From positions 1,216,001-1,280,000 of the forward strand of contig CBDANS010000006.1 in the NCBI GenBank assembly GCA_965197745.1: a stretch of DNA of 64,000 nucleotides, given 5' to 3'. Of the stretch, positions 34,872 to 61,241 are shown piece after piece. A program made the position numbers and the translations under genes. The notes beneath the pieces are model-generated. The model was not told where the DNA came from, searched no databases, and saw only the letters and a program-made list of their open reading frames with translations. How positions within the stretch are numbered: the stretch's first letter is position 1; every line of letters starts with the position of its first letter. The DNA comes from Opitutales bacterium. Its GTDB lineage: Bacteria; Verrucomicrobiota; Verrucomicrobiia; Opitutales; PNEW01.

Positions 34872-34986
34872 TTTTTAATCGTAGACGAGGTATCGCGCTG
34901 CCAAATATATTGAGCTACACTATGGATTTAGACCGAAGATTCGGGGATCTTTTTTCTTTCCCACCTTGTCATGTCCATTCAGAAGA

Positions 34987-36744: not shown

Positions 36745-36800
36745 AGACGAATTATTGGTAAGATTATCAAGTAACTTACACCCATTAAATAAAATTAGCT

Positions 36801-38603: not shown

Positions 38604-38621
38604 AATACAGGAGATAATCGG

Positions 38622-39221
38622 ATGTCTACAGTTGAAATTCCTTATATTAGTACCCCCAGACCGGACACCGGATTGGTTAACGCCAAGCTGGGGATCTGGT
38701 TGTTTCTGGCTTCTGAGGTAATGCTTTTCGGGGGACTGTTTTCTACCTATGTCATCCTGCGTGTCGGCGCAGAGACCTGGCCGGAAGGGGCCTCTATTCT
38801 CAATGTACCCCTCGCGACCCTGAATACAATAGTGCTTATCACTTCCAGTATTACAATGGTCATGGCTTGGGCTTCATTAGTGAGAAAAAATTTTAATAAG
38901 TTCCGGCTCTATAATTATGCGACATTGGCCTGCGGCCTGATCTTTCTCATCGTAAAATATTTTGAATACAGTGCAAAAATTCATCATGGCCTTTTCCCTT
39001 CGGAAAGCACCTTTCTTGCCATCTATTTTACCCTTACCGGGTTACATGGATTGCACGTTATTGGAGGTATGCTGACCCTGGCATACCTGCACTGGCCGGG
39101 ATCGAAGATGTGGAAAACAGATCCAGTGCGCTTTACCGGCAGGGTAGAATGCGCCGGACTTTTCTGGCACCTGGTGGACCTCGTCTGGATCTTCCTGTTC
39201 CCCACCCTTTATCTCATGTAA
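38622..39221 (+). CDS. ctaE: Cytochrome c oxidase subunit III
   Basis: WLFLASEVMLFGGLF, LTGLHGLHV, FWHLVDLVWIFLFP. Confidence 0.95.
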   Translation: MSTVEIPYISTPRPDTGLVNAKLGIWLFLASEVMLFGGLFSTYVILRVGAETWPEGASILNVPLATLNTIVLITSSITMVMAWASLVRKNFNKFRLYNYATLACGLIFLIVKYFEYSAKIHHGLFPSESTFLAIYFTLTGLHGLHVIGGMLTLAYLHWPGSKMWKTDPVRFTGRVECAGLFWHLVDLVWIFLFPTLYLM

Positions 39222-39233
39222 GAGGAAATAACT

Positions 39234-39551
39234 ATGGCAGAAAACTTAGAAGAACTTGATCAACATGTGCGGGCCTGCTTCGCCATTTTTGTGGCCCTGT
39301 TATGCCTGACCGTAATGACCGTAGCAGTATCATATTTAAACTTACCGGTACCCGCTACGATCAGCCTGGCCTTGTGCATTGCTTTAATCAAAGGATCTAT
39401 GGTCGTCTCCTATTTCATGCACTTAATCTCTGAAAAAAAAGTTATATTCTGGTCCCTCACGCTGACTGCTATTTTCTTTATATTTCTCATGATCCTTCCC
39501 GTGATAACGGACCTGGATATCATCTCTTATACGGTTACCGTCAGCCATTAA
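39234..39551 (+). CDS. ctaF: Cytochrome c oxidase subunit IV family
   Basis: IALIKGSMVVSYFMHL motif, 3 TM, operon position. Confidence 0.88.
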   Translation: MAENLEELDQHVRACFAIFVALLCLTVMTVAVSYLNLPVPATISLALCIALIKGSMVVSYFMHLISEKKVIFWSLTLTAIFFIFLMILPVITDLDIISYTVTVSH

Positions 39552-39734
39552 ATGTCCTTAAAAATATTTCATATTTTTTTTATTTCCATTTCATTAATTC
39601 TTTGTCTTGGTTTCGGCTGGTGGTCGTTCCAGCAATCCGGAGCCTATATTTTTGCGGGCATTGGGTCTTTTGCAGCAGGTATCGCTTTATTTTTCTACGG
39701 CAATTATTTTCTGAATAAAATGCAGAATCTATAA
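39552..39734 (+). CDS. Small 2-TM membrane protein in the cox operon
   Basis: MSLKIFHIFFI...; abuts both neighbours. Confidence 0.7.
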   Translation: MSLKIFHIFFISISLILCLGFGWWSFQQSGAYIFAGIGSFAAGIALFFYGNYFLNKMQNL

Positions 39735-39736
39735 CC

Positions 39737-39976
39737 ATGGGCAGTATCATTAGAGATTATTATTTTCGGTTAATAATAGCTGCTTTAGTATTCGTTACGG
39801 CACAGCCACTCATGGCTTGCAGCAGTTGCTTCAGTAAGGTAACCGGGAGCATGGCAGACAGCATTAATATGGGTATCATTTCATTGTATATGACTGTCCT
39901 GGTCCTCCTTGGCGGATTTGCCTGTTTTTTTATTAACCTTTGGAAGCGCGCTAAAAAATTCTCGAGAGATAATTAA
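39737..39976 (+). CDS. Small membrane protein with ACxxC motif in the cox operon
   Basis: Signal-like helix, ACSSCF, C-terminal TM; operon-coupled. Confidence 0.7.
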   Translation: MGSIIRDYYFRLIIAALVFVTAQPLMACSSCFSKVTGSMADSINMGIISLYMTVLVLLGGFACFFINLWKRAKKFSRDN

Positions 39977-40013
39977 TTTTTTTTAAAACCCCACTATTTA
40001 TGAAAGGTCGATA

Positions 40014-40805
40014 ATGGAACAACCGATGAAAGAATTCTTTGGGATGCCATGGCTACCCATTGATGTTTCAGAGCATGGAGCTGCGCTCGATGATCTAAAC
40101 TGGTGGTTACACCTCTTAGCGATTATCCTTTTTGTGGGATGGACAGGCTATTTTATTTATGTCCTCTTCCGGTTTAAAAAGTCACGTAATCCTCAAGCAG
40201 ATTACGAGGGGACAAAATCTCATTTGGGAACGTATATTGAAGTCGCTGTAATCGTTGCGGAAATTGTTCTTCTAATCGGTTTTTCTATCCCCCTTTGGGC
40301 ACAATGGGCCGATGATTTCCCCGAGGAATCAGAATCAGTGGTCCTTCGCATAGTGGCTGAGCAGTTTGCCTGGAATTTTCACTATCCGGGATCAGACGGG
40401 GTCTTCGGCAATACTGCACCTCAACTGATCGATGTGCAGACTAATCCCGTGGGACTTGATATGGAAGATCCCAATGCGGCCGATGATGTAATAGCCAAAC
40501 GGCTCTATCTTCCCGTAGACAAGCCGATTATTACGCATCTAACCTCCAAGGACGTCATACACAGCTTTGGGATTCCCGCTATGCGGGTAAAACAGGATAT
40601 CATTCCAGGCATAACCATTCCCGTGACTTTCAAAGTCCTGGAGACGGGAAAATATCTTATTGCCTGCAGCCAGTTATGTGGTAACGGTCACTACAGCATG
40701 CGCGGCTTTATCGAAGTCCTGAGCCAGGATAATTATACTGACTGGCTGAATAGGGAGGTAGAGAAAGCTAAAAAACAGGCGGAGGCTGGTGATGATTTAT
40801 GGTAA
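40014..40805 (+). CDS. ctaC: Cytochrome c oxidase subunit II
   Basis: 2 TM, QFAWNFHYPG, DVIHSF, KQDIIPG, CuA motif CSQLCGNGHYSM. Confidence 0.95.
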   Translation: MEQPMKEFFGMPWLPIDVSEHGAALDDLNWWLHLLAIILFVGWTGYFIYVLFRFKKSRNPQADYEGTKSHLGTYIEVAVIVAEIVLLIGFSIPLWAQWADDFPEESESVVLRIVAEQFAWNFHYPGSDGVFGNTAPQLIDVQTNPVGLDMEDPNAADDVIAKRLYLPVDKPIITHLTSKDVIHSFGIPAMRVKQDIIPGITIPVTFKVLETGKYLIACSQLCGNGHYSMRGFIEVLSQDNYTDWLNREVEKAKKQAEAGDDLW

Positions 40806-40861: not shown

Positions 40862-42586
40862 CTGAGCGGCTATTGTAAAAGTTGTATAATTAAATTTGTC
40901 ATTGCCTCTTGGGCGTTTTTAGCGGGAGCGACAGCACTCCTGGCGCAAACACCGGAAGGAGGTTCGGACGTAGCTTACCGGGATTTTCCCCTGGTCGGTA
41001 GTCGCATCGCCATTTGGGCCATAGGGGAGCTGCATCTTATGTATGCGGCCTTCGTTTTGGCCGTTCCGATGTTCGCTCTCCTCATCGAGTTTATCGGTTA
41101 TAAAACCGGGGATAAGCGATACGATAAGCTGGCCCATGAATTTACCAGTTTATTGAGCGTTTCCTTTTCCTTTACCGCTACTCTCGGAGCGATCCTCACT
41201 TTCATGCTGATGATTCTCTACCCGAGATTCACGAGTTACCTGGTTTCCATTTTTGATAAGACATTCTGGCCTTATGGATTGCTCTTTTTTGCCGAAGCCG
41301 GATTTTTATACAGCTATTACTATGGGTGGGGCAAATTCTCGCCTCGGGTCCACCTTCTTTTGGGTGTAGGATTAAATATCGTTGGTACCGCGATTATGTT
41401 CATCGCTAATGCCTGGCTCGCTTTCATGACTTCTCCAAGTGGAATTGATGAAGCCGGCAATCTTGTCAGCACCTGGGACGCCGTGAACAATTATATTTGG
41501 ATGCCCATAAATATTCACCGCATGATTGCCAATGTCTGCTTCGGCGGAGCCATTGCCGCAGCCTATGCGGGTTTCAAATTTTTAGGCGCGAAAACAAAAG
41601 AGGAAAAAGCGCACTATGATTGGATGGGCTATGTCGGAAACTTTATCGCCATTTCCGCGTTGCTCCCCTTACCCTTCGCCGGTTACTGGCTGGGAAGTGA
41701 GATCTATGCTTTCCGCGCGCAAATGGGAATGGTTTTAATGGGAGGAGCCTTTTCCTGGTTATTTATCATTCAAGCGGTACTTATCGGGATGCTTTTTCTC
41801 GGGGCTAATTATTATCTGTGGCTGGGAATGGAGCGAATAGAGGGTGCCGAAAAGTATAACAAGTTTATAAAATACCTTCTCGCTACGATCACCGGCTGCT
41901 TCATTGTTTGGGCCACGCCGCATTCACTTGTCGCGACGGTTGAAGAAGCGCGTAAAATGGGGGGAGCCCATCACCCGATTCTTGGTATTTTAGGGGTGAT
42001 GTCGGCAAAAAATACCGCGGTTAATATCATGATTCTCACCACCTATATCAGCTTCCTTCTCTATCGCCGGGGAAACAAGGTGGCCACGGTTTCATGGGCG
42101 CCCCTTGGCCATACGGCCCAATTCCTCATTTTTGCGGTTACCATAATTTTTGTTATTATCATTGGGGTGGTGGGTTATTTTATCGAAGCCTCAGTGCGGA
42201 TTGGGCTTTCCGTTCCCCAGGTTCTGTCTGTTTTGTCCGCGATGATCTCAGTTACGATTATTGATATATTCCTCTTCCGAAATGCGCGCATCGTCGGTCA
42301 GATAAAATGGGGAGAGATCTCGGCAAGAGCGCAGTATATGCTGTTTTTCCTCGCCGTAACCTTTACCTGGCTGATGGGGCTGATGGGCTATGTTCGTTCA
42401 GGTCTCCGCCTGCACTGGCATGTTTACGAGGTGATGAAGGATACTTCCGTTGACGCCTTTACCCCGACACTGGGTTTCGCCAGCACCGTGGTTTCATGTA
42501 TCGTTATCATTTTCTTCACCTTTATCATGTTTAATTTCTGGCTAACCGGGCTTCTCCACAAGAAAGATTGGGAGCCTCGCACTTGA
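40862..42586 (+). CDS. Cytochrome bd-like oxidase subunit I (CydA-like); start uncertain
   Basis: ELHLMYAAF, FFAE..FLYSYYYGW, ANAW..FMTSP, IHRMIAN, MGYVRSGLR; frame open from 40850 but first ATG only at 41039. Confidence 0.8.
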   Translation: MSGYCKSCIIKFVIASWAFLAGATALLAQTPEGGSDVAYRDFPLVGSRIAIWAIGELHLMYAAFVLAVPMFALLIEFIGYKTGDKRYDKLAHEFTSLLSVSFSFTATLGAILTFMLMILYPRFTSYLVSIFDKTFWPYGLLFFAEAGFLYSYYYGWGKFSPRVHLLLGVGLNIVGTAIMFIANAWLAFMTSPSGIDEAGNLVSTWDAVNNYIWMPINIHRMIANVCFGGAIAAAYAGFKFLGAKTKEEKAHYDWMGYVGNFIAISALLPLPFAGYWLGSEIYAFRAQMGMVLMGGAFSWLFIIQAVLIGMLFLGANYYLWLGMERIEGAEKYNKFIKYLLATITGCFIVWATPHSLVATVEEARKMGGAHHPILGILGVMSAKNTAVNIMILTTYISFLLYRRGNKVATVSWAPLGHTAQFLIFAVTIIFVIIIGVVGYFIEASVRIGLSVPQVLSVLSAMISVTIIDIFLFRNARIVGQIKWGEISARAQYMLFFLAVTFTWLMGLMGYVRSGLRLHWHVYEVMKDTSVDAFTPTLGFASTVVSCIVIIFFTFIMFNFWLTGLLHKKDWEPRT

Positions 42587-42594
42587 TCAACAGG

Positions 42595-43413
42595 ATGAAG
42601 AATATTATCAATATATTTGTCTTAACTATCTTAACCACCCTTTTTTACTGGTATGTGGGGCAGATGGTTCCGCAAAAGGAGACGCATCCACCCGAAAGCA
42701 CGGAAATTCGAGATGACATGAGCACTGAGGAGATGATTGTTGCCGGGGAAAAGATAGCTACGGGCAAGGGAACCTGTTTTCTATGTCATACGATGGGCGC
42801 TGAAGGAACGCGCGCCCCGGACCTGGCCGGTATAGGACAGCGAGCGGCTTCGCGTATAGAGGGTTATAGCGATGTTGATTATCTGGCTGAATCTCTTTTT
42901 GAACCGGCCTTATATGTCGTGGAGGGATTTAATCCTATCATGACGCCATCGAATAAAGCACCTATTAGCTTAACACCGCAGGAAACATTAGCGGTTATTG
43001 CTTATCTTCAAAGTTTAGGGGGCACTCCCTCGGTGACGATGAAGACGAAATTAAAGTACTCTGAAGATGCGACGGTGACTCCGGCACCAGCAACCGTATC
43101 AAGCAGCGATGCCAGTGCGGTTTCTTATGACAATCTCAGCGGGGAAGAGCTATTTAATAAGTATGCGTGTATGGCCTGCCACAGTTTGACGGATCCGATC
43201 CAACTGATTGGCCCAAGCCTCTATGATGTGGGAAATAGATTAAGCAGGGCGGAAATCTATGAATCCATTATCGATCCCGATGCCGTGGTCAACGAGGGTT
43301 ATGTTAAAGGAGTAATGGGAATTACCCTCGAAGGTGCCGGATTTGATAGTAATGTTACACCCCAGCAACTGAGAACGATGGTGGAATTTCTATCGGAGAA
43401 AAAGGGCAGTTAG
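42595..43413 (+). CDS. Membrane-anchored diheme cytochrome c
   Basis: N-terminal TM, CFLCH and CMACH, repeated YLAESLFEP/IYESIIDP motifs. Confidence 0.9.
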   Translation: MKNIINIFVLTILTTLFYWYVGQMVPQKETHPPESTEIRDDMSTEEMIVAGEKIATGKGTCFLCHTMGAEGTRAPDLAGIGQRAASRIEGYSDVDYLAESLFEPALYVVEGFNPIMTPSNKAPISLTPQETLAVIAYLQSLGGTPSVTMKTKLKYSEDATVTPAPATVSSSDASAVSYDNLSGEELFNKYACMACHSLTDPIQLIGPSLYDVGNRLSRAEIYESIIDPDAVVNEGYVKGVMGITLEGAGFDSNVTPQQLRTMVEFLSEKKGS

Positions 43414-44247
43414 ATGAAATTTCTTATTATACCCCTGGTCTTATTTATTTTATTTGTCATTTATTTATTCAGCAGATCAAAAAAACTCGCCTTGTTTAAC
43501 GCCCTCTTTTGGGTAATTGCCTGGTGGATTGCTTTTTATGTGATTTTTAAAAACGCGATTTCACCTCCGCTTCCATCCTCCATCGTCCAGATGTTTATGG
43601 CGATTATTACGATTGCGCTTTTCTTTTATATCACCGCGGATACTCAGCGATTAAAGGAAACTATCCACCCGATTATTCAATTTCTCGTAAATCGAAAATT
43701 TACCCTGCCCCTGGGATTAGTAATTATCATCATTCCCCTGCTCGTGGCCGGAAAAGTTTATTTAGGTTCTCAGGTAGAAATTGTGGCCCCGGTATTTGGG
43801 AGGAGTATCCATCCCGCGCCGCCTACGGAAATTAATTTTCAGGGCAGACCATTATTACTCAATGAACTTGAAAATCCTTATCGTCATCTGGAGACAGAAA
43901 ATCCTGCTGCTTTCCAGGAACACGTTGAAACTGGCCGTAAAGTGTATTACAATAATTGTGTCTATTGCCATGGGGACACGCTCGACGGGAAAGGAAATTT
44001 CGCCCATGGATTCAATCCCATTCCTGCCAATTTTGCTGACGTCGGTACCATTGCACAATTGCAGGAATCCTATGTTTTCTGGCGTGTAGCTAAGGGAGCC
44101 CCCGATCTCCCCGACGAATCAGGACCCTGGAGTTCTGCCATGCCTGCGTGGGAAAAATTTCTTACTGAAGATGAAATTTGGGATGTCATCCTTTTTATTT
44201 ACGACTTTACCGGGCACAGGCCAAGGGCGCGAGTGGAGCATCATTAA
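43414..44247 (+). CDS. Multi-TM monoheme cytochrome c
   Basis: About four TM helices, CVYCHG, SAMPAW. Confidence 0.9.
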   Translation: MKFLIIPLVLFILFVIYLFSRSKKLALFNALFWVIAWWIAFYVIFKNAISPPLPSSIVQMFMAIITIALFFYITADTQRLKETIHPIIQFLVNRKFTLPLGLVIIIIPLLVAGKVYLGSQVEIVAPVFGRSIHPAPPTEINFQGRPLLLNELENPYRHLETENPAAFQEHVETGRKVYYNNCVYCHGDTLDGKGNFAHGFNPIPANFADVGTIAQLQESYVFWRVAKGAPDLPDESGPWSSAMPAWEKFLTEDEIWDVILFIYDFTGHRPRARVEHH

Positions 44248-44253
44248 TCTTGA

Positions 44254-45873
44254 ATGGGTATAATGAAATCAGGCATGCAATTATCTAAGAATAGTAGACT
44301 CTTACAGCTGTCATTTGTCCTCACGGTTATAGGTTTTTTTACAGGTAGTATCCTCTACTCCGGCGAAGTAAACCTGGGGACGGAAACGGAGCGCGAAGAA
44401 GGTAAAAAATTGTATTTAAATTATTGCGCCCACTGCCATGGGGTTGATGGTGACGGTGAAGGGAGCGCGATGCGGTATTTTCATCCCAAACCGAGAGACT
44501 TTACCGGGGGGAAATTTAAACTGCGCAGCACCGAAAGCGGCGAACTCCCAACCGATAATGATATTATTCAGGTAATTCAAAAAGGGATGCCATACACCGG
44601 TATGCCTGCGTTCCCTGATTTTAATGAGGAAGAATACCAAAACCTCGCCTATTATCTTAAAACATTTAATGACGATTTCACCGACCCGGATTTTATCGTT
44701 GATCCGCTCAGCTTTCCTAAAGCGCCACCCTACAGTGAAGAATCGGCTTTGAAGGGAAAGGAGATTTATACTATCAATGAGTGCAATGGCTGCCATGGTG
44801 AGTCTGGGCGAGCCGATGGGATATCGGCCTCTACGCTGGAAGACGATTTCGGTGATATAAAATACCATATCCGCCCCGCTGATTTGACAAAAAAATGGAC
44901 ATTCCGACGAGGACCAACGCGCGAGGATATGTACCGTGCTTTTACTACCGGGTTGAATGGAACGCCCATGCCTTCTTATAAAGATTCTATAACCCCAGAA
45001 GACCGGTGGCATCTGGTGAATTATATTTACTCACTCTCCGATCGTGTTGAACCGAATTATTCTACAACCGTAATTGCCGAGTATACAGAAGAGAAGATAA
45101 ACCTTTCAAAAGGTAAATCACTATTTGAAAATAGCGAAGTAGCGTTTTTTCCTGTCGTCGGGCAAGTGATCGAACCCGGGCGTGAGTTTTTTCCGTCTGC
45201 CAATGCCATCGAAGTGAGGGTGATCTACAATCAGGATGATATTGCATTTATGCTTTCCTGGAATGACATGAAAGCTGAAGTTGAAGGGAGTAATGCTCCA
45301 GACATAGCGGTTGAGAAAAATCATCTCGATAAGCCGGAGACTCAGATGAAAACACGGGTCGTTGAGGACCGCGGAATAACGTATTCGGATGCGGTTGCAT
45401 TACAACTTCCCAGTGTCATGCCCGATGGGTTTAAAAAACCCTATTTTCTTTATGGCGACAACAAAAATACCGTAGATATTACCTTTCTTGATCTGGCCGA
45501 TGAAAATGAAGTAAAGCGTTACACCGGTTTTGGATATGATCGGCTTACCCTGGTAGAAAACAATGATGCATCTGCTGTCTCTAATTACGATAACGGTGAA
45601 TGGTCAGTTATTATCAAACGCAATCGGAATTTGGGTGCTGAAGAGGGTCTATCCTTTGTCGAAGAGACCTTTATACCGCTATCGTTTTATGTATGGGATG
45701 GCTTTAACAGTGAACGCGGCATTGATAGCAGCATTAGCTCGTGGTACAGCCTTTATTTAAAAGCCTCGGAAGAGGAATCTCCTATAATCCCCATGATTAG
45801 TTACGGTTTCCTTGCCCTCTTTATAGAATTAATCATAGTTTTTCTCATGAGGAGGAAATTTTCCACGGCTTGA
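44254..45873 (+). CDS. Diheme cytochrome c fused to an ethylbenzene-dehydrogenase-gamma-like (EB_dh) heme b domain, C-terminal TM
   Basis: CAHCHG..PKPRDFT, CNGCHG..PADLT, GTPMP, then LSWND, SDAVALQLP, GEWSVIIKR, VWDG..ERG. Confidence 0.85.
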   Translation: MGIMKSGMQLSKNSRLLQLSFVLTVIGFFTGSILYSGEVNLGTETEREEGKKLYLNYCAHCHGVDGDGEGSAMRYFHPKPRDFTGGKFKLRSTESGELPTDNDIIQVIQKGMPYTGMPAFPDFNEEEYQNLAYYLKTFNDDFTDPDFIVDPLSFPKAPPYSEESALKGKEIYTINECNGCHGESGRADGISASTLEDDFGDIKYHIRPADLTKKWTFRRGPTREDMYRAFTTGLNGTPMPSYKDSITPEDRWHLVNYIYSLSDRVEPNYSTTVIAEYTEEKINLSKGKSLFENSEVAFFPVVGQVIEPGREFFPSANAIEVRVIYNQDDIAFMLSWNDMKAEVEGSNAPDIAVEKNHLDKPETQMKTRVVEDRGITYSDAVALQLPSVMPDGFKKPYFLYGDNKNTVDITFLDLADENEVKRYTGFGYDRLTLVENNDASAVSNYDNGEWSVIIKRNRNLGAEEGLSFVEETFIPLSFYVWDGFNSERGIDSSISSWYSLYLKASEEESPIIPMISYGFLALFIELIIVFLMRRKFSTA

Positions 45874-46724: not shown

Positions 46725-47618
46725 TCAGTTATCTGTTTTTGTGACCACGCAGTATTCAGTATAACTTTGGATTTTTTTTAATCCGAGTTTTTCGAGAAAG
46801 TAAAAATCAACTTCATGAGTGGAGAGTTTAGGAATATCTATCAATGGACTTATTGAGGTGGATACATATTTTATGAGGAGACCCAGTAACATCGGGCCCT
46901 TTTCTTTGCTTTTACACCCGAGTCCCAAAATAGTTACCGGTGATTGCTGACTGACATTAGCGGACTCGTCTTCAATGTAGAATAGATAGGCGGCAATTCC
47001 ATCCATGTCCGGTATGCCTAACCCTTTGATTTCTTTTTTTCGATTAATGAGCGTCTGCGTTCTTCGTTCCCATGCCAGCAGGGTTTCATCACTCTGATTA
47101 TTTTCCCCTGTTTGTGTCAGGTAACGATCTCCAGGATCTTCAACTTCAACCGGGATGATCAATTCAGGCGATACTGGCGGGCTCAATGAAGTAGAGGCGG
47201 TAAAGTCACAATAATTCCGGTGCGCTTTAAAATCCAGTTTCCCGAAAAATTTACCTAAGTCTTCTCGATTATCCGGGATAGCGACGGTCAACGCTGGTGG
47301 CCCCAGCACTGCCATTTTATCTTTGAGGGAAGTTACGAGTTGGGGCCCGTAATTATGACCCTGGTAATCTGGTTGGAGGCCCAATCTTAATATTAACGAA
47401 GAGACATTCCTTTTCGCCGTTATCAGGACGCCAACTGGAACATTATTTTCCAGGGCGAGCATGCATGAACTGGCCCAAAGATTGAGATGCTTCACTTCCC
47501 TTTTAAATCCCTCTAAAGTGAGGGGAGGGACATGGGGAAAATGAATGTCGTAACACCGGTTTACGGCTTCGACAAGTAATGGAATATCATCAGGACGACA
47601 AAACCTGAATGAGGGCAT
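46725..47618 (-). CDS. GNAT-family acetyltransferase-like protein
   Basis: PVGVLITAKR...ILRLGLQPDYQGHNYG (motif A-like), FFGKLDF. Confidence 0.65.
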   Translation of the reverse strand: MPSFRFCRPDDIPLLVEAVNRCYDIHFPHVPPLTLEGFKREVKHLNLWASSCMLALENNVPVGVLITAKRNVSSLILRLGLQPDYQGHNYGPQLVTSLKDKMAVLGPPALTVAIPDNREDLGKFFGKLDFKAHRNYCDFTASTSLSPPVSPELIIPVEVEDPGDRYLTQTGENNQSDETLLAWERRTQTLINRKKEIKGLGIPDMDGIAAYLFYIEDESANVSQQSPVTILGLGCKSKEKGPMLLGLLIKYVSTSISPLIDIPKLSTHEVDFYFLEKLGLKKIQSYTEYCVVTKTDN

Positions 47619-47624
47619 GCCTGA

Positions 47625-49673
47625 TCAAAGGTCGGAACGTTTACTTTCAAGTTCCGACATGACACTGACTTCATTAAGGTTTTCCTTGGGCGGTTGATCG
47701 TGAGGATAATCATTCACCTCTTCACTTCCATATTCCGGAGCGCCGCTCATTCTTGAATTACCGTTGCCGTTAGTCTGAGCGGTAATCATCTCTTCCATCA
47801 TTTTACGCCCAATTTCGATTCCCTTTTCGACAAGTCCAATATCTATGGAAAAAGTTTTCTCTTCTAATGCGATGCTTTCAATTCGCTCCTGTACTTTGTC
47901 ACGCATAAAGCCAGCGGGAACGCGCAATATGCGCTCCGAGGCTTCCGCGGTCCAATCATAAACCGATTTTAAAGGGGTCCCTTTTTTGTCCCTCGCGATT
48001 AACTTGATCCCATCGTTGAAATCATTCTCAACTGAAGACGCGGAGTTGCTGGATGATGCCGTAAGGTTATGTTCTTCCAGGCTGTCTTCATGTCCCAGCT
48101 CTTTAATTATTTCCTCTGCGAATTCTACGGTTACTGCGTTCAAACGTCGCATCCTGGCCGCTTTTTCAATATAAGCTTTGGCCCGTCTTTTCTGGTAGTT
48201 GTCCTTGATCGCTGGTAACAGCTTGCGCGCTTCTTTGGTCCAGGAGAGTTTTCTCCCGTCGTACGAGGTTTCTTCGTTCGATCCTCCCTCTGATTTTATA
48301 ATATCATCAATAATTTTCGGAGTAATCACCTCAAAGTTTGTTGATCCGCACACCGCACACTTAATCGGGTTTTCCTCTTTAGCCGTCATCCCACAACTTT
48401 TACAGATGGCGGTGTTCCCTTTGCGTGCCATATTAAAGGCCAGGGTTTCTGCGAGTTTATCAGTCGCTTTCGCTGCCTGTTTCGGCATGAAGCGATCCAT
48501 CGCTTCATCGATCAAAGAGTTGGTCACGACACTGTGACCCTTTTCCACGGCGAGCCGTAGGATCCCGGTGCGCGCGATACCTTTTACGAGAGGGGGAACT
48601 CGGGTCATACGTTCTTCGGCTTCCTGGGTCCATTGAATACTCTCTTCCGCTTTGCGGTCGAGTTCCGGGTAGACCAATCGTGAATTGAGGAGCACATCAC
48701 AGGGAGCTATGCGCAATAAGTTATCTGTGTTACTCCCCAAACCCGTGTCTTCGAGATCGCTATGGACCCCAATCCTACCGACGATCAGCAGCCAGGGAGG
48801 ATTTTTACGCGTGTAGTCCAATATTTTCTGAAAAGCTTTTCCGTCGAGAAGCACTTTTTCTGCTTCGAGGCCTTTTTCTTTCAACATCTTTTCCGCAACT
48901 TCAAGATGGGACTGATAGATTTGAGCCAGGCCCGTATCAATAATTTCTTCATGTAATTGGTTTTGTTCTTCAAACCGGAAAACTTTAGCCGCTTTATCAG
49001 TGAGGACATCAACGATCCCATTAAAGACCATATAATGGAGATAAGGGTCATATACACCGATGAGCGTAATTTTTTTATTAAATTCTTTCGCCAGTTCAAC
49101 CGCGGTCATGAGTCCACCAAATGACTGCGGACTGCCGTCCACCCCCACAAGAATCGTATCGCGCTCCGGCTCATCATCTACGGGGAGATGTTTTACCACC
49201 CAGATATCGCCTTTCCCGTGCCGGGTCACGCTCTGGCAAACTGCGCCAATCTGACTGTCTTTCGTTTTTCCAATACCCTTAATCCCCAGGACGGTAAGGT
49301 CGTATTCGGAAGCTTCCATATCTTTCAAAATCTGCTCATGGTGCTTCCCGTCCATCATCTTCTTCTCTAATTCCAGGCCCGCTTCTTCGCAGTGTTTGTC
49401 CATTTCAGTGAGATAACAATCGGAAATCAGCTTTAATCCCATGGTGATTAAGCTGTCGTGAATTTTCCGCTGCCTTTCCAATTCGGTCTCCTGGAGGTAT
49501 TCATCGGGCAGGGTGAACTCCATTTGCTTGAATCGATAATCATGCATTTTTGCGGCATAGACATGATTGCCCGTTAATCTGGAGTTATATTTTTTACCAA
49601 CCTCGACCGCGACACTAATTGCCTGGTTAGAATAGTCTGAGTTATCTACAGGGACGAAAATCGATTTAAACAT
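47625..49673 (-). CDS. Tandem universal stress protein domains + three PCP_red-like domains + CxxC-CxxC ribbon
   Basis: IFVPVDNSDYS / ILVGVDGSPQS, LGSNTDNLLR; WTQEAEERMTRVP, WTKEARKLL, WTAEASERILRVP; CKSC...CAVC. Confidence 0.85.
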   Translation of the reverse strand: MFKSIFVPVDNSDYSNQAISVAVEVGKKYNSRLTGNHVYAAKMHDYRFKQMEFTLPDEYLQETELERQRKIHDSLITMGLKLISDCYLTEMDKHCEEAGLELEKKMMDGKHHEQILKDMEASEYDLTVLGIKGIGKTKDSQIGAVCQSVTRHGKGDIWVVKHLPVDDEPERDTILVGVDGSPQSFGGLMTAVELAKEFNKKITLIGVYDPYLHYMVFNGIVDVLTDKAAKVFRFEEQNQLHEEIIDTGLAQIYQSHLEVAEKMLKEKGLEAEKVLLDGKAFQKILDYTRKNPPWLLIVGRIGVHSDLEDTGLGSNTDNLLRIAPCDVLLNSRLVYPELDRKAEESIQWTQEAEERMTRVPPLVKGIARTGILRLAVEKGHSVVTNSLIDEAMDRFMPKQAAKATDKLAETLAFNMARKGNTAICKSCGMTAKEENPIKCAVCGSTNFEVITPKIIDDIIKSEGGSNEETSYDGRKLSWTKEARKLLPAIKDNYQKRRAKAYIEKAARMRRLNAVTVEFAEEIIKELGHEDSLEEHNLTASSSNSASSVENDFNDGIKLIARDKKGTPLKSVYDWTAEASERILRVPAGFMRDKVQERIESIALEEKTFSIDIGLVEKGIEIGRKMMEEMITAQTNGNGNSRMSGAPEYGSEEVNDYPHDQPPKENLNEVSVMSELESKRSDL

Positions 49674-49803
49674 GTATTTTACCTGACGCTGCTATTGATT
49701 TTTAAGGTTTAGGAAACGAACTTTTCAGTCAATTTCACCATCTGAATTATTTACTTAGATGTCAATGAAATGAGAAACTAATCCATGATTTCTCAAACCA
49801 CTT

Positions 49804-51144
49804 TTAGCGTTTCCCAAAAACTTTTGGAGTCGGCATCTTACTGCGTATTTCAGTGAGCACTTCACCCGTCACTCTGTTTATATTATTTTTCAAGCAATAG
49901 CTTTCGACGGACTTTTTTACCATTCCGCGGACAAATGCGGGGATTTCTTTCATGCGTTCTTTTGCCTCGAATTCCCATTCAATTGATCCGGAATTATCCA
50001 GGTCGTGGGGGAGGCCATATTCCATTCCGGGACGGTTATTGATTGCCTCCTTTGAATACTTTCCCGGGGTGTAATCACAGAGCGGATCTTCGGCCATATA
50101 ATCTCCGGTGACCCCATAAGCGCGGGCGCGGCACCCGCCACAAACACCGTTAAATTCGCAGGTCCCACAACGGTCGCCAAGATTGTTTCTTTGACGGATT
50201 TTTAAAAATAAATCCGATTGGTTCCAGATCTCCTCCATCGTTTGATCCTCTAAATTGCCACCGAAATCGGGGAGATAAGGACAAGGGGTCATGTCTCCAT
50301 TGGGACGTATGCCCATGTACTGGGTTCCGGCCGGACAGCCACCCGCACCCCCGGTGAATGATTTTAAAAACCTGGAGTCAGGATCTTCCTCATAAAGGTG
50401 TTTTGCGTAATGAGGCGCGCACTTGGCATTGGTAATCATTTTCCCCTCATATTTTTTCTGGACTAGAGAAAGGGTCGTTAAGACCGCATTGTATTGATCG
50501 GGGCTGATATCAGAAACAAACTGTCCGCGCCCTGTAGGCACTAAAAAATAGAGGTTAAAAACTTTGGCCCCCATTTCTTCATAAGCGAAATCGGCTATAA
50601 CTTCAATCTTACCAAGATTATGTTTTCCCACCGTCGTTTGGACTATAAAAGAGAGACCTGTTTTATGTAATACCTTTGCCCCATTAACCGTGTTTTCCCA
50701 GGCGCCTTTTACCCCGCGAAACCGGTCGTGGAGTTCGGGGTCGAGAGCGTCAAGCGAGAGTGACAGTCCACGCAAACCGCTTTCTTTTAATATCCCGGCC
50801 AGGTTTTCTGTAATGAGAACACCATTGGTTCCACAAACTACCCAAAGTTCCTTTTCACTGCCATATTTAATGATTTCGAGGATATCTCTCCGCAGCAACG
50901 GCTCGCCTCCGGTGAGAATAGTTAATGCTTCAGGGGCAAAGTCAGCGATCTGATCAATGATCGTCTTACATTGTGCGGTGTTAAGTTCGCTGCGATCAGA
51001 AAATCCATCGGTGCTTAACCGGCGAACATCCTTTCCCCCCGCGTCGAGATAACAATGCTCACATTTTAAATTACACCGGTTTGTCAAATTCCACGATATA
51101 ACATATGGCCGCTGGAATTTATTGTTAGATGCTTCGTTTAACAT
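49804..51144 (-). CDS. Radical SAM/SPASM protein (AhbD/NirJ-like) with C-terminal PCP_red-like domain
   Basis: WNLTNRCNLKCEHC, TGGEPLLR, LVPTGRG, KCAPHY, CPAG...PCPY...CGTC...CGGCRARA...DPLC; WEFEAKERMKEIPAFVRGMV. Confidence 0.88.
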   Translation of the reverse strand: MLNEASNNKFQRPYVISWNLTNRCNLKCEHCYLDAGGKDVRRLSTDGFSDRSELNTAQCKTIIDQIADFAPEALTILTGGEPLLRRDILEIIKYGSEKELWVVCGTNGVLITENLAGILKESGLRGLSLSLDALDPELHDRFRGVKGAWENTVNGAKVLHKTGLSFIVQTTVGKHNLGKIEVIADFAYEEMGAKVFNLYFLVPTGRGQFVSDISPDQYNAVLTTLSLVQKKYEGKMITNAKCAPHYAKHLYEEDPDSRFLKSFTGGAGGCPAGTQYMGIRPNGDMTPCPYLPDFGGNLEDQTMEEIWNQSDLFLKIRQRNNLGDRCGTCEFNGVCGGCRARAYGVTGDYMAEDPLCDYTPGKYSKEAINNRPGMEYGLPHDLDNSGSIEWEFEAKERMKEIPAFVRGMVKKSVESYCLKNNINRVTGEVLTEIRSKMPTPKVFGKR

Positions 51145-51165
51145 TGTTTAACAATTAATCGATGT

Positions 51166-51193
51166 GATGCAGGATACTGGATACATGATGCAA
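51166..51193 (+). repeat. Heptamer tandem array GAT(G/A)C(A/T)N x4
   Basis: GATGCAG GATACTG GATACAT GATGCAA; inverted counterpart at 51617-51643. Confidence 0.75.
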
Positions 51194-51203
51194 GTATTAT
51201 GAA

Positions 51204-51590
51204 TCAGGTTTTATGCTTTTCTATAACAGATTCTCTAAACCTATATATCTTGGCTCCCAATACATCGTAATCACACTTTATAGCTTCAAAATTCTCAATC
51301 TTGAGTGAACCTGTTTCAAAAAGTAAGTCTAAATGCGTTCTTGTCTCGTCACATGATGCTATCGCATAAATTAAGAATTTTAGAAAATCATTTTTATACA
51401 ATCTTCTGCCATACCCTTCTACAATATTTGTAACTATGGATTTCGATGATCGCCGTATTTGACTTCCTTCTTCATACATTTCGAAATTAGGAAGTTCATT
51501 GATTGTAATCTTATGTATTTTAACTGCTAGTTGCTTTGACAAATTAAAAATCTCAAGATCCTTATAAGATTGTTTGTTCGTATTTATCAC
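51204..51590 (-). CDS. Four-helix bundle protein (23S rRNA IVP family)
   Basis: SYKDLEIF, SQIRRSSKSIVTNIVEGYGR, FLIYAIASCDET; AT-rich relative to neighbours. Confidence 0.9.
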   Translation of the reverse strand: MINTNKQSYKDLEIFNLSKQLAVKIHKITINELPNFEMYEEGSQIRRSSKSIVTNIVEGYGRRLYKNDFLKFLIYAIASCDETRTHLDLLFETGSLKIENFEAIKCDYDVLGAKIYRFRESVIEKHKT

Positions 51591-51616
51591 TGATTATTTT
51601 CATTCAATATTGAACA

Positions 51617-51643
51617 TGCATCCCGCATCCTGCATCCTGCATC
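51617..51643 (-). repeat. Heptamer tandem array (TGCATCC) x~4
   Basis: TGCATCC CGCATCC TGCATCC TGCATC, inverted relative to 51166-51193. Confidence 0.75.
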
Positions 51644-52142
51644 ACATTTCAAATTCTTCTTTCGCGCGATCGAGGCATTCTTCGTTGACTTGAGTGAAAC
51701 CATTTTCACGGGCGAATTTTTCTATGCCCTTTTTTGCCATGGGGCGGGCAAATTCAGGAATTTTCTGTAATCGGACCATCGCTTGTGCCGTCCAATTAAT
51801 TTCACTATTATCGTCATCATTACTTTCCACCGTGTCCATCATTGCGTCGCGTGCCATCTGGGAGAATGGACATTTAGAAGCGGGTTCAGATTTGACCTCG
51901 TTGATGTCGCCGCTTTCATCCAGCGTGATCCCCTGAGATTTGGACACCGTTTCTCCGCCGATTTCTACTCCCATCGAGGTGACCATCTGGGTTTCGAAAG
52001 CATTAGTGAGCATCGCGATTTCAATCAGGCACTCCGGACATTCGTAGCGAATAGAGAGGGAGCCATGATCATCCGGTTTTAAGGGTGCTTCGCTTTTTAC
52101 CAGTTTCATCTGGGTATTACAGGATGTGCATAAGAATTTCAT
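51642..52142 (-). CDS. Zn-ribbon-like (CxxC...CxxC) protein with C-terminal PCP_red-like domain
   Basis: MKFLCTSC...ECPEC, SKCPF, INWTAQAMVRLQKIPEFARPMAKKGIEKFARENG. Confidence 0.82.
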   Translation of the reverse strand: MKFLCTSCNTQMKLVKSEAPLKPDDHGSLSIRYECPECLIEIAMLTNAFETQMVTSMGVEIGGETVSKSQGITLDESGDINEVKSEPASKCPFSQMARDAMMDTVESNDDDNSEINWTAQAMVRLQKIPEFARPMAKKGIEKFARENGFTQVNEECLDRAKEEFEM

Positions 52143-52144
52143 GG

Positions 52145-53026
52145 TCAGGCCTCCAAGGTATTAATTATTTTTTTTGCGATATTTTGGAGAGAAATGTTAG
52201 TGGGGGAATCACCGGTGCATTCGGTAATCGTTCCACGATCACAATGTTCTGCCACCGCTGGATCAAAGGGGACAGTGCCCAGTAAGGGAACATCCCATTT
52301 CGGATTACCCGAGGGGAACAACGGTTTGATTTCATCAGAGTCCGCGCAGTAATAGCCACTCATGTTTTCTATATACCCGATTATGGGAGATGCCGTTTTA
52401 CTAATGGCCACGACTGAGCGAGTGACAACACCTTGAGAAACTTCAGAGGGAATGGTGATGATAATGAAGTTAGTTTTATCACCAAAGAATTCTGCAAACT
52501 GAAAGCATCTTTCAGCGCCGGGTGGAAGGTCAATAATAAGAAAATCCAATTTCCCCCAGTCAGTATCAGCGAGGAAATCGGAGAGGGTAGCAAATTCTTT
52601 TGTCGCCCGCCAGACATGGGAATCGCCGCTAGCCACACTTTTAAAGTCTACAGCTTCCGTTTCCGGCACGAGGGTTCCGAATGATATAACACCAATGCCT
52701 GACCTGGTTTTTGGAACAACGAGACCATTTTCTCCCGGGATGAGTGGAGCCTCGGTGAGGCCCGCGAGGCGAGCCAGGGCCGGACCGTTGATGTCGGCAT
52801 CAAGGAGGGAGACACTATTTCCTAATCCGTTCAGAGTGGACGCGAGATACATCGTAATTGTGCTTTTACCTACGCCACCCTTACCGGAACCGACGGCGAT
52901 GATGTGTTTAATGCCAGCGAGATTTTTTTCGATTTTGGCTTTGTGGGATACGACCTGACCCATAATGTCAGAACCCCCGTCTCCTCTGAGATCGGAGTAA
53001 GATTTTATATCACTCGAGTCACCCAT
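52145..53026 (-). CDS. Mrp/ApbC/NBP35-family P-loop ATPase
   Basis: GSGKGGVGKST, DADINGP, WGKLDFLIIDLPPG, IENMS; the usual CxxC after ENMS reads YCADSD (one Cys). Confidence 0.9.
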   Translation of the reverse strand: MGDSSDIKSYSDLRGDGGSDIMGQVVSHKAKIEKNLAGIKHIIAVGSGKGGVGKSTITMYLASTLNGLGNSVSLLDADINGPALARLAGLTEAPLIPGENGLVVPKTRSGIGVISFGTLVPETEAVDFKSVASGDSHVWRATKEFATLSDFLADTDWGKLDFLIIDLPPGAERCFQFAEFFGDKTNFIIITIPSEVSQGVVTRSVVAISKTASPIIGYIENMSGYYCADSDEIKPLFPSGNPKWDVPLLGTVPFDPAVAEHCDRGTITECTGDSPTNISLQNIAKKIINTLEA

Positions 53027-57871: not shown

Positions 57872-60800
57872 TTAACGACTACCTCCTTCCATGCGTATTC
57901 GGGGATCGAGCCACATGAGCAAGAGGTCACTGCACAGGGTGCCTAAGACCCCGAGCAAGCTGAGAACCATAAGCATCGAGCCGGCCAAATACATATCTTC
58001 CTTCATCAGGGCATCGAGCATTAACGGCCCCACCGTGGGAAGACTGAGGACCATGGCGACAATCGCGCCCCCGGAGACTAATGAAGGGAAAATTCCCCCG
58101 ATTCCCGAGATAAATGGATTTAACGCTAAACGCACCGGATATTTCATTAAAAGCTTAAACGGTCGCACTCCCTTGGCCATAGCTGTTATGACATAGGGTT
58201 TTCTCAACTCGTCAAGCAAGTTGGCTCGCATAACGCGTATCATACTCGCGGTTCCCGTGACACCCAAAACCACAACAGGCACCCAGATGTGCTGTAAAAG
58301 GTCAATTATTTTACCTCTGGTCCATTCTGGTTGGACTGCATATTCAGGTGAAAACAGGCCTGAGATATTAATGCCCAAGTATTTACCGCTCCAGTACATA
58401 ATAATTAAGGCGAGGAGAAAACTCGGGACGCTCATCCCGATAAAGCCAATCAAGGTGATTAAATAGTCGCCAAGGGTATACTGGCGAATTGCCGAAAAGA
58501 TACCAATAGGCAATGCGACCACCCAGGTAAAGAGGATCGTCCCAAGGGAAATGAGAAAAGTGAGAAGCATGCGATCGCCTACCACTGCATTGATCGTATT
58601 CTGGTTCTCCATCGACAATCCCATATGTCCCTGCAGCAAACCCTGATCTTTTTTTTCGAAAGAGGTAAACCAGTTAAGACCGAGCCAGCGGATATACCGT
58701 TCAGTAATGGGTTTATCAAGATGAAAAATCTCGCTCAGCTCTTTAATCTCAGCAATGGAATTTTCTCCGCCTTTCAGCTGCATCACCAGGATTTTGGTTT
58801 CGATGAAATTGCCCGGAGGTAGCTGGATAATAACAAAAGAAATCACCGAGATGATGAGAAGGGTAGGAATCAAAATGAGCAGCCGCCTTCCGATGTAGGG
58901 ATGCCGAACTCCCAGCAGTATAATTCCACAAACGATGATACCGACAAACAAGTGTCTGATCAATCTTACCAGGCGATTTGTGCTATTCGATTCGAGCGTG
59001 CCGGAAACCAGACCGTAAGGAGCAGGTGTGATTTCGATCAGTTCTTTTTTGATTTGTGAAATGGCTCCAGGCGAATGATATGGCTCTTCAAAGTAATAGG
59101 TTTCTATTCCAGCTTGTGACGGTGGATGATAACGATTGCCATAGAATGCGTTGCGCGGAACATTTTTAAACCCATTTTTAACTACCACCGGGTGCGGTGG
59201 CGCGGTGGCAATATTAATCGACCAGACATTTTCCGCGGCGATATAGAACACTTTATTGAAAATCTTACGTTGGGCTTCACGCGTGGATTCACCGTAAGCT
59301 GCGTCAATGAGTTTCATCGATAGCCGTAAGGGATGATCATTCGGTGGTTCGATGCCTCCGAGTTGAGTGGCTCCAGGATTGCCTGAAAGTCCATCTCTAT
59401 TATACCAGGTAAAATAGCCGAAAGCTTGGAGTGAGGTTAACGCGGCAAAACGTTCTGGTCCCATGATCGGATTGTATTCGCTCTCCGTGGCCCAAATAGA
59501 AAATTCAAGTTTGCCTGATTGTTGTTCTACTTGAAAAAGAGAAAGCGCTGGCTGGTGTCGGATGGCGCGAATGCCCACGCGGCTCCAATCCCCGATGATG
59601 AGCTCCGTCGGCCCTTCGTCTTCCCCTTGCGGCACGGAATAATGCCAGGCCATGCGCGTGCCATCCTTAAATGTACGGTAGCCTTCGGTATCGCGCCGGG
59701 TGAGGCCTATCGCATCGAGCAATTGATTAGCTCGATCGGGCGCATACTCGGTGAAACTTTTATGAAGTTTTTCATGGTGGAAAAACGATTCCCTGCCGGG
59801 CGATAGCTGTGCCGGTTCTCCTACTCCATTGTAAACAATTTCGATGATTTGCCGGCGATTAATGGCGAGGGAGAGCGCCTGGCGGAAGCGTTTGTCATTG
59901 AGAAGATCATGTTTCATTTGGGTAACCGGATTATCAGGGTCTACCAAAAGGTTAAGATTCGGGTAAATAAGGTAGCGTGAGCGTGTTGCCGGAAACCAGT
60001 GATAGACTTCGTAATCACTTGTTTCGCGTTGTGACATGAGCAGGGTGTAGTAGAAATCCATAACAAAAATTTGAAAAGTGATTGCTCCGTTAGATGCCGC
60101 TATGGGTATCAATCTGTAGTTTTTAAGATCGTAGTGTAACCGGTCCACATAAGGGAGCTGATTGCCTTTGGTATCGACTGCCCAGTAGTAGGGATTACGC
60201 ACAAATGTATGGGGCGGGTTAGCTTTATAAGTGCGGTAGATCCAGGGCCAAAGCCGTGGATGTTCCGGGTTGTTCCATTGTTTCAATGATGCGTATAGGG
60301 CATTGCGCGAAGGCAACCTGCTTTCTTCGAGGGTAGCCTCAATTAACGCTTCATCGCCGAGTAGAGGATGGTATTTTTCCAGGTAATGGCGAGGTAAGTT
60401 GAAAATAAGGGCTCGAGCCAGGCGTTCAAGAAACGCTCCGTAGGGTTGAGGAAAAACAAATTTTACCGTGTAATCATTGATTTTAACAATCTCCCCTGCC
60501 ATCCCCCCTACTTTCATCCAATCCGGAGTCACACCACCAAATATTTCATCATTAGTTGTATCCTCCCACCAGAATAGAATATCGTCGGCGGTAAAAGGGT
60601 GACCATCGGACCACTTCATCCCTTTGCGCAGGTAAAAGGTCCATTCCTTCAAGTCGGGACTGGATTCCCAACCTTTAGCTATGTGAGGCACGATCGGGTA
60701 ACCGAGCGGAGACCAGCGAACGAGCGTGGACCCGGAATAGAAGCTTTGGATGATACTCATATCGTTGTAGGATCCTACTACTTTGAACCAGGTGCCGCCG

Positions 60801-61156: not shown

Positions 61157-61241
61157 GCAAATTATTTATTAACAACGAATGAAGATAAATGACACGAATT
61201 ATGTTAACGGCTGATTAATCGACAACGGGAAGTAATAATCC

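Follow-up and report, generated by a model that had tools for sequence, protein, structure and literature searches.

A candidate haem supply module with PCP_red domains beside a bd-like oxidase cluster in an Opitutales bacterium

The stretch of DNA analysed here, referred to as the window, comprises 64,000 nucleotides of an Opitutales bacterium of the Verrucomicrobiota (assembly GCA_965197745.1, contig CBDANS010000006.1, positions 1,216,001 to 1,280,000) and contains a run of six genes, three of which encode proteins carrying together five copies of a small helical domain, PCP_red (PF08369). These six open reading frames (ORFs) encode an Mrp-type ATPase, a Zn-ribbon protein, a four-helix protein, a radical S-adenosylmethionine (SAM) enzyme, a tandem Usp protein and a GNAT-fold protein, and all are encoded on the minus strand, with the same coordinates as in the original prediction, which had been made from the letters of the window and had proposed a cofactor-maturation system held together by docking tags (Table 1). 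The spacing is 2 nt between the Mrp and Zn-ribbon genes, 6 nt between the Usp and GNAT genes and 130 nt between the radical SAM and Usp genes. The four-helix gene matches TIGR02436 with 88.5 bits against a cut-off of 24; because it is flanked by a 34-nt inverted repeat (arms at 51162-51195 and 51614-51647) and no such gene occurs in any of 80 related Usp loci, it is an insertion and a passenger in the operon, as had been supposed. The loci closest to the Usp gene come from Opitutales, Verrucomicrobia and Ca. Moanabacter (83, 82 and 70% identity, respectively). An HpcH aldolase gene downstream and a SirB-like gene upstream were also considered as members of the module and were set aside as passengers, since each occurs in only 2 of 80 loci.

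Table 1. Genes and domain copies of the locus, with positions in the window.
Feature	Position	Strand	Remarks
Mrp/NBP35-family P-loop ATPase, 293 aa	52145..53026	minus	PF10609
Zn-ribbon protein, 166 aa	51642..52142	minus	CxxC..CxxC ribbon, Cys-Pro-Phe linker, C-terminal PCP_red
PCP_red in Zn-ribbon protein	51660..51794	minus	56.2 bits, E 1.9e-14
Four-helix gene	51204..51590	minus	23S rRNA IVP family, TIGR02436
AhbD/NirJ2-like radical SAM/SPASM enzyme, 446 aa	49804..51144	minus	C-terminal PCP_red
PCP_red in radical SAM enzyme	49846..49977	minus	50.9 bits, E 8.9e-13
Tandem Usp protein, 682 aa	47625..49673	minus	PF00582 x2, PCP_red x3
Usp PCP_red copy 1	48501..48632	minus	41.7 bits
Usp PCP_red copy 2	48111..48242	minus	divergent; 18.4 bits, E 0.012; three helices in model
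Usp PCP_red copy 3	47826..47954	minus	30.9 bits, E 1.5e-6
GNAT-fold protein, 297 aa	46725..47618	minus	PF00583
bd-like (CydA-like) membrane subunit	40862..42586	plus	probable client; PF01654, 65 bits; probably OR-N type
Dihaem cytochrome c, monohaem cytochrome c, dihaem cytochrome c with EB_dh	42568..45873	plus	probable client partners; PF00034, PF09459

The helical motif had been likened to PCP_red, and this is borne out by a six-frame search of the whole host genome (4.45 Mb, 92% complete) with PF08369 at a gathering cut-off of 32.5 bits. Six matches were obtained at E≤1, five of which are the operon copies; three of these five exceed the cut-off singly, the second and third Usp copies lie below it, and the three whole proteins all exceed it (71.5, 46.3 and 53.9 bits). 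The sixth match is a 17-position fragment on another contig (E 0.11). Since no further full match was found in this search and only the operon copies match genome-wide, the host therefore appears to be without BchB. All five copies are present as predicted, but the middle Usp copy fits the proposed residue pattern poorly; it is found in the same place in 10/10 other genomes checked (E≤0.1). Similarly, the domain said to end the radical SAM enzyme is there, but is followed by a tail of about 13 residues. The C-terminus of the Zn-ribbon protein model superimposes on the nuclear magnetic resonance structure of a PCP_red domain, 2kru (Z 9.7, root-mean-square deviation (rmsd) 1.2, 55 aligned), and on the stand-alone Asr4154 (2l09; Z 6.6), and the copies in the Usp model show a strand and three helices. 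Beyond PCP_red structures, the fold resembles AAA+ lids and N-terminal domains of DNA polymerase B-subunits, the latter being docking domains, at middling scores (Z 5.5-6.1; best 7e15_F with Z 6.1, rmsd 2.4, 52 aligned).

Across genomes, copies at the same position share 58-75% identity, and copies at different positions 18-39%; judged by these values they are old and position-specific. All five keep the core pattern, and their alignment reveals no common His, Cys or Tyr ligand. Among relatives of the Usp protein the number of copies varies from 0 to 6 (50 of 150 representatives scanned). The domain is known from the BchB/ChlB subunit of dark-operative protochlorophyllide oxidoreductase (DPOR; PF08369; structures 2kru, 2xdq_B and 2ynm_D), to which the copies described here are alike in sequence (E 2.7e-7 to 2xdq_B). 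In DPOR a docking role is ascribed to the C-terminal domain of BchB, and PCP_red operates there next to a P-loop ATPase that belongs, broadly, to the class of Mrp. Unlike in DPOR, the domain is found here on three non-nitrogenase proteins, with up to six copies per chain in the family and in a genome without BchB, and TIGR01278 is matched solely over its final ~60 positions, which places these proteins outside DPOR and chlorophyllide oxidoreductase (COR). The portions available to us of three papers on DPOR (PMC12022308, PMC13474568, PMC13297055) state no role for the BchB C-terminal domain. We regard a function of PCP_red as a protein-docking module as moderately probable. In other proteins, PCP_red is N-terminal in haem-degrading ChuW/HutW radical SAM enzymes (TIGR04107 over cut-off; L188 7013-8563, L189 6506-8071), whose genes adjoin flavodoxin-like genes and, in L188, additionally a gene for a HutX-like protein. 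Outside the module, just two PCP_red proteins were found in 200 genomes of the host's own phylum, both of them ChuW/HutW (424.8 and 410.7 bits against a cut-off of 400) and each encoded by a flavodoxin-like gene's side. A stand-alone protein of 337 aa with four PCP_red repeats follows the radical SAM gene in Manganitrophus-like loci (L100 14309-15322).

Relatives of the Usp protein are numerous and extend to SAR324 and Mariprofundaceae: of 7,999 candidates that were scored, 4,734 reach E≤1e-30, and at least 578 genome stretches were confirmed. Gene linkage was assessed in the best 80 of these at least 578 loci, with at most 10 kb on each side and many stretches ending at contig edges, and neighbours were called by BLASTP at E≤1e-6 on our own ORF calls. 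Within this distance of the Usp gene, the EB_dh cytochrome was found in 78 loci, GNAT in 72, the monohaem cytochrome c in 70, the bd-like gene in 69, the dihaem cytochrome c in 66, Mrp in 49, the Zn-ribbon protein in 42, the radical SAM enzyme in 36 and cox genes in 24-29; genes similar to alternative complex III (ACIII) are clustered in 53/90 loci. Usually the ACIII-like genes come first, followed by the bd-like gene, a pair of cytochromes, the EB_dh cytochrome and then Usp, GNAT, Mrp, the Zn-ribbon protein and the radical SAM enzyme. The convergent arrangement of the two gene groups that had been pointed out is present in the window but is specific to the lineage, as elsewhere the Usp gene usually follows the EB_dh cytochrome directly and in the same direction. 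All three PCP_red proteins occur in 9/10 carrier genomes, even where the cassettes are on separate contigs, and in G006 the Usp and bd-like genes lie on different contigs. In a sample of Acidobacteriota genomes (around G001), the 15/201 genomes with Usp are also those with the bd-like gene; PF08369 matches in these and in three others, which owe the match to BchB, to a fragment of a radical SAM tail and to a degenerate Usp, respectively. Both genes occur in the same 2/78 genomes of a Bdellovibrionales sample (around G003), and in the host's own phylum the one genome of 201 with multi-copy PCP_red, the host itself, is also the one with the bd-like gene. Samples centred on G002 and G006 largely coincide with that of G001 (8/151 for both queries) and were not counted as independent. 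These neighbourhood counts and the same-genome occurrence in three phylum samples uphold the claim that the gene set is conserved and linked to the bd-like/cytochrome c cluster, and it is very probable that the module is tied to it.

A second type of locus was found in Nitrospirota, represented by 80 metagenome loci of Ca. Manganitrophus protein P0285. They contain Usp (80/80), radical SAM-PCP_red (63), a CopD-like membrane protein (59), a Slr0320-like B12 radical SAM enzyme (50) and a UbiE-like protein (35). As Usp and the radical SAM enzyme are kept in these loci, those two form the constant core. In Ca. Manganitrophus Mn1, the locus tags 104290-104292 correspond to Usp-5xPCP_red, radical SAM-SPASM-PCP_red and a 3xPCP_red protein, each present in 8/8 genomes, and 102612-102613 include an Mrp gene adjoining a 2xPCP_red gene (PMC9040806 Table S6, as far as accessible). 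The genes NITMOv2_0499-0496 of Nitrospira moscoviensis match in order and size, from which we take their identity (PMC6606698 Table 1). Since Nitrospirales mostly carry an OR-N2 gene (PMC12342949, in the parts seen), genome-level co-occurrence of the module with OR-N2 in these bacteria is plausible. As a separate observation, UbiE-like methyltransferase (35/80) and Slr0320-like genes (50/80; NF045585 447 bits, under cut-off) precede Usp in L155 2-2455 and most Nitrospirota-type loci; they might, speculatively, be candidates for the methylation of Nitrospira methyl-plastoquinone, for which the portion of the published account that we saw names no methyltransferase.

The radical SAM enzyme is best matched by models of haem enzymes, all under cut-off: TIGR04545 (AhbD) with 303.4 bits of 500, TIGR04055 (NirJ2) with 296 of 500 and TIGR04053 with 263. 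Peptide-maturase models reach at most 147 bits, and two distant homologues score 305.2 and 304.7 with TIGR04545. The sequence contains CX3CX2C and SPASM cysteines at 242, 270, 288, 326, 329, 335, 338 and 356, which agree with the full AhbD motif CX20-33CX17CX36-37CX2CX5CX2CX17-35C; nothing in anSME, PqqE or MftC aligns with its first cysteine (PMC10452713, in the parts available). In its strict form the motif is kept by 55/55 Nitrospirota-type, 18/28 near and 5/5 distant homologues. The proposed assignment to haem-related enzymes of AhbD/NirJ2 type is thus supported at the level of models and motifs. With AhbD and NirJ2 the enzyme shares a full-length model match, CX3CX2C and the eight-Cys SPASM domain with AhbD spacing; it differs from AhbD in scoring ~300 bits of 500, in its extra PCP_red domain, and in its hosts, which are without AhbA/B (PF17805 in 0/5 carriers, the genomes being incomplete) and have HemF or ChdC-family genes. 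The host itself contains HemF, HemY and ferrochelatase (HemH) over cut-off as well as CtaA and a CtaB-like gene, and within its 92% complete genome there is no ChdC, no HemN over cut-off and no second close TIGR04545 match. Among 17 carriers, HemF was detected in 9 and ChdC-family genes in 7 (4 of them full-length), with no overlap. The module would thus be an add-on to either haem route, as an O2-independent back-up or as a specialised step. Two other assignments were considered and rejected: a housekeeping haem b synthase of the host, with HemF, HemY and ferrochelatase present over cut-off, and a replacement for the synthesis of the haem A used by the A-type oxidase close by, with CtaA present in 5/5 carriers and a CtaB-like ORF, recognised by motif match only, beside the oxidase. 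In two loci the cassette has a haem O synthase gene as neighbour, which scores over the cut-off in L040 and just under it in L090 (206 against 210); in L090 HemY also immediately precedes Mrp. We consider the module to be probably haem-related; if so, the product would have a slightly better than even chance of being plain haem b, and a modified haem would be rather unlikely.

The Usp protein is composed of two ATP-type Usp domains, PCP_red copy 1, a CxxC..CxxC ribbon, and PCP_red copies 2 and 3, in this order. Its model (predicted local distance difference test (pLDDT) 88.6, predicted template modelling score (pTM) 0.63) matches best the ATP-bound tandem Usp TTHA0350 (E 1.1e-16). Two ATP-type Usp domains are shared with TTHA0350 and Rv2623, which are the best fold matches, whereas the long conserved helical insertions with paired histidines and the PCP_red/ribbon tail set this protein apart from both. 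The ATP-type motif of Usp proteins is G-2x-G-9x-G-S/T; it is recognised in both domains, in the second with a 10-residue spacer, and G130, G133, G143, G302 and G313 are invariant in 150 sequences. Each domain holds one of the insertions, which are rich in His and Met and can be aligned with one another, H44/H72 being paired with H213/H241. H37, H213, H241 and H304 are invariant in the 150 sequences, and H44 and H72 are kept in 148/150; the ribbon (aa 424-442) is found in 120/120 close and ~13/46 distant homologues. For the stress-sensing role assigned to this protein in the original prediction no evidence was found, and the conserved His-bearing insertions rather point to putative ligand binding. 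Four Usp relatives (P0136, P0180, P0199, P0216) are fused to a PNPOx-like (split-barrel) domain of ~250 aa, which lies at the N-terminus of three of them and at the C-terminus of the fourth; the N-terminal ones gave weak matches only, too little to assign haem binding to them. Degenerate tandem Usp-PCP_red paralogues without the His-bearing insertions lie beside a B12-type-looking radical SAM ORF in L182 (6017-7024) and L183 (6166-7164). The GNAT protein matches PF00583 with 22.2 bits and PDB entries only weakly.

The Mrp protein matches PF10609 with 188 bits against a cut-off of 27.1 and stays below the equivalog cut-offs of MrpORP (179.5 against 450) and ApbC (122 against 348), from which, going by sequence, it is a distinct subfamily of the Mrp/NBP35 family. 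It has PF10609 and an invariant Walker A signature in common with the Fe-S carriers MrpORP and ApbC, and differs from them in its own N-terminal and central motifs. The CxxC of Mrp/ApbC proteins is the motif for a bridging cluster; it is found in 45/52 homologues, and its second Cys is missing here and in L007-L009, so that the description of this Mrp as Fe-S carrier is not supported in this lineage. In the Zn-ribbon protein C5, C8, C35, C38, C91, P92 and F93 are invariant in 44 sequences, and the Cys-Pro motif, which is a haem-regulatory motif, is present in 48/50 ORFs. Its model has a pLDDT of 73.9 with low confidence in the linker (residues ~63-88), and a Foldseek search of the model found no match at E≤0.001, the ribbon part being without a fold match. 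A complex of the Mrp dimer (with ATP and Mg) and the Zn-ribbon protein was predicted with a score of 0.58 (runs 0.58, 0.67 and 0.51), against 0.00 for the best of three controls, with runs sharing at least 67% of contacts and a partner pLDDT of at least 65. The mark set for this score is reached by 116/157 solved complexes and 2/215 mismatches, and scores at 0.60 or under comprise 18/157 solved complexes and both mismatches. The prediction lends weak support to an association of the two proteins, and part of the score may stem from their similarity to the DPOR complex of known structure.

The presumed client, the bd-like gene, has an ATG-initiated ORF from 41039, and its frame is open back to 40850, 63 codons upstream, including a signal-like stretch, a conserved His and a purine-rich site before the CTG at 40862; we therefore infer a non-canonical CTG start. 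Members of OR-N2 are recognised by subfamily HMMs, 14 transmembrane helices and the lack of a quinol site; a crude hydropathy scan of this subunit gave 10 peaks, and its gene context agrees with that of the published cluster. In the parts of the literature seen, the same gene set is the cluster of Nitrospira, Nitrospina and anammox bacteria (PMC3578206, PMC6606698, 10.1101/2021.01.16.426971). A bd-like subunit, mono- and dihaem cytochromes c and an EB_dh cytochrome are common to it and to the OR-N2/NIDE0901-type cluster (TO_1) of Nitrospira, Nitrospina, anammox bacteria and Ca. Manganitrophus; no maturation genes are named for the published clusters in those parts, and the cluster described here is from Verrucomicrobiota and a probably heterotroph-like genome, judging by its nearest loci, L007-L009. 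For those Nitrospirota that oxidise nitrite or manganese, OR-N bd-like oxidases are the proposed terminal oxidase, with activity and O2 affinity given as unknown (PMC12342949, PMC9040806, in part). Positions 34359-40805 of the window hold the operon of an A-type haem-copper oxidase, its CoxA/B just below equivalog cut-offs, together with genes for azurin-like, cytochrome c and cupredoxin-like proteins. A divergent cluster in L087 (43-15263) contains a large cytochrome c, two cupredoxin-like proteins, a bd-like subunit, several cytochromes, a Usp with one PCP_red, a radical SAM enzyme and a multicopper oxidase.

The explanation that we favour, with moderate confidence, is a cytoplasmic module that supplies haem and hands it over, chiefly to the bd-like oxidase complex of OR-N type encoded next to it, and in which the PCP_red copies are docking domains specific to their positions. 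The domains, motifs, gene linkage and co-occurrence are observed, and the rest, from client and substrate to haem binding, docking and the order of steps, is our inference. The tandem Usp-PCP_red protein and the AhbD-like radical SAM-PCP_red enzyme would be the core, with Mrp, the Zn-ribbon protein and GNAT as accessories. The substrate of the radical SAM enzyme would be an iron porphyrin, whose propionate side chains it would modify, converting coprohaem to haem b by AhbD chemistry or forming a variant product. Haem in transit might be held by the Cys-Pro-Phe linker of the Zn-ribbon protein and by the paired histidines of the Usp insertions, hand-over might be gated by ATP binding of Mrp and Usp, and each PCP_red would dock to its own protein partner, the Mrp dimer being one candidate partner of the Zn-ribbon protein. 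A more specific version, in which a modified haem of a hitherto undescribed kind, made by the AhbD-related enzyme, is delivered to the OR-N oxidase, the presumed terminal oxidase of Nitrospira and Ca. Manganitrophus, by a new class of haem-binding tandem Usp chaperone and Mrp through PCP_red docking as a dedicated cofactor biogenesis, is unlikely.

Several points weigh against this explanation. Most of the best 80 Usp loci are linked to bd-like clusters, but none of the 80 Nitrospirota-type loci has bd-like, Mrp or GNAT genes within 10 kb, and the bd-like genes have distant locus tags in Mn1 (PMC9040806) and N. moscoviensis (PMC6606698), as far as these sources were seen. The co-occurrence counts include the seed genomes and come mostly from physically linked genes and from related genomes, which are not independent. 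The A-type haem-copper oxidase operon is near the cassette in 24/36 radical SAM loci (bd-like in 33/36), and divergence correlations (0.84-0.93, 12 loci) do not discriminate between a bd-like and an A-type client. The radical SAM enzyme scores under the AhbD cut-off of TIGR04545, and no coprohaem source is evident in the host, with neither ChdC nor AhbA/B in its 92% complete genome. The haem-binding roles of the Cys-Pro motif and of the Usp histidines are putative, and the complex prediction gave no interface, contacts of Mrp with PCP_red or with the ribbon being indistinguishable.

Five other explanations, which overlap in part, were weighed. The best of them, itself doubtful, is a general O2-independent back-up of haem b synthesis, an AhbD-type coprohaem decarboxylase with helpers, for all respiratory cytochromes at low O2, the oxidases adjoining it as main consumers. 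It accords with the AhbD-type SPASM motif, the O2-dependent vinyl-forming enzymes of the carriers (the HemF and ChdC-family counts given above), the lack of HemN over cut-off in the host and the HemY and haem O synthase neighbours. It leaves unexplained that the 462 sampled genomes without bd-like lack the module marker and that 18/18 with bd-like have it; moreover, coprohaem is not a normal intermediate in HemF-type hosts. An AhbD-like enzyme has been proposed for the anaerobic conversion of coprohaem to haem b (PMC10114771, in part).

The next, quite unlikely, is that of the original prediction, one interchangeable PCP_red tag with one receptor, uniting Mrp, radical SAM and Usp in a single complex. 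The core pattern of all five copies, the weak Mrp-Zn-ribbon prediction and the stand-alone proteins with three to four PCP_red copies beside the core pair in Manganitrophus-like loci fit it, but a single shared tag is at odds with identities that fall from 58-75% within to 18-39% between positions and with the 0-6 copies of Usp relatives. The complex of all parts fares no better, since Nitrospirota-type loci keep Usp and the radical SAM enzyme with Mrp beyond 10 kb in 80/80 and GNAT nearby in 0/80. A role in handling copper or another metal, or in modifying an oxidase protein by a SPASM-type cross-link rather than in haem, is about as improbable, if not slightly more so. The CopD-like gene (below cut-off) beside the pair in 59/80 Nitrospirota-type loci, the multicopper oxidase and cupredoxin-like genes of L087, the His/Met-rich Usp insertions and the copper proposed for one Nitrospira bd-like oxidase (PMC8115632, PMC6606698, in part) agree with it; opposed to it are the peptide-maturase scores of at most 147 bits against 303 for AhbD, the first SPASM cysteine that anSME, PqqE and MftC lack in the alignment seen, and the ChuW/HutW fusions of PCP_red, which point to tetrapyrroles.

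That PCP_red is a tetrapyrrole-binding or substrate-gating lid, with the Usp repeats as a haem store, would suit the characterised families in which we encountered the domain, all tetrapyrrole-active (BchB, ChuW/HutW, AhbD-like), but is very unlikely given five copies without a shared His, Cys or Tyr ligand and a fold resembling AAA+ lids and polymerase N-terminal domains. Least probable is a stress- or energy-sensing regulator of Usp and acetyltransferase that controls the oxidase only, among unrelated passengers: the ATP motif (G-2x-G-9/10x-G) in both Usp domains, GNAT after Usp in 72/80 loci and the rise of N. marina Usp proteins at low O2 (PMC8115632, seen in part; inclusion of this Usp not shown) are outweighed by the radical SAM enzyme, not GNAT, being the most constant partner across phyla and by the high and steady expression (rank 152) of the N. 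moscoviensis Usp-like gene of like size and order (PMC6606698, in part).

Elsewhere in the window, IS transposase-like ORFs were recognised by eye at 1169-2411 (IS3-like, split over two frames) and 5411-6265 (IS1595-like), and 57872-63509 holds two tandem genes in which a peptide ABC substrate-binding domain is fused to a permease, the second seeming to begin mid-domain.

Sets of cofactor genes that travel with one oxidase type are well known: CtaA/CtaB/Sco for aa3, CcoGHIS for cbb3, CydDC for bd and the Nir genes for haem d1 are dedicated to oxidase biogenesis. The module likewise consists of parts from known families and belongs to a known kind of cluster, oxidase cofactor biogenesis; it differs from those sets and from HemW in its parts list, with a sequence relation only through its NirJ-like radical SAM enzyme (for the HemW chaperone and NirJ, PMC10114771; PMC12324825 was a further source; both in part). 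No description of this gene set was found in the open literature, which was the scope covered, most subscription papers lying outside it; the supplements of Murali 2021 may cover OR-N operon neighbours. The gene set, kept across phyla, names candidates for co-expression in the reconstitution of bd-like enzymes and predicts the source of an unusual cofactor. It also offers soluble, tractable, non-photosynthetic proteins for the study of PCP_red, among them a Usp protein that is a candidate for binding haem. If the version with a modified haem were true, PCP_red would be a general adaptor of tetrapyrrole enzymes, common to DPOR, ChuW/HutW and the module described here.

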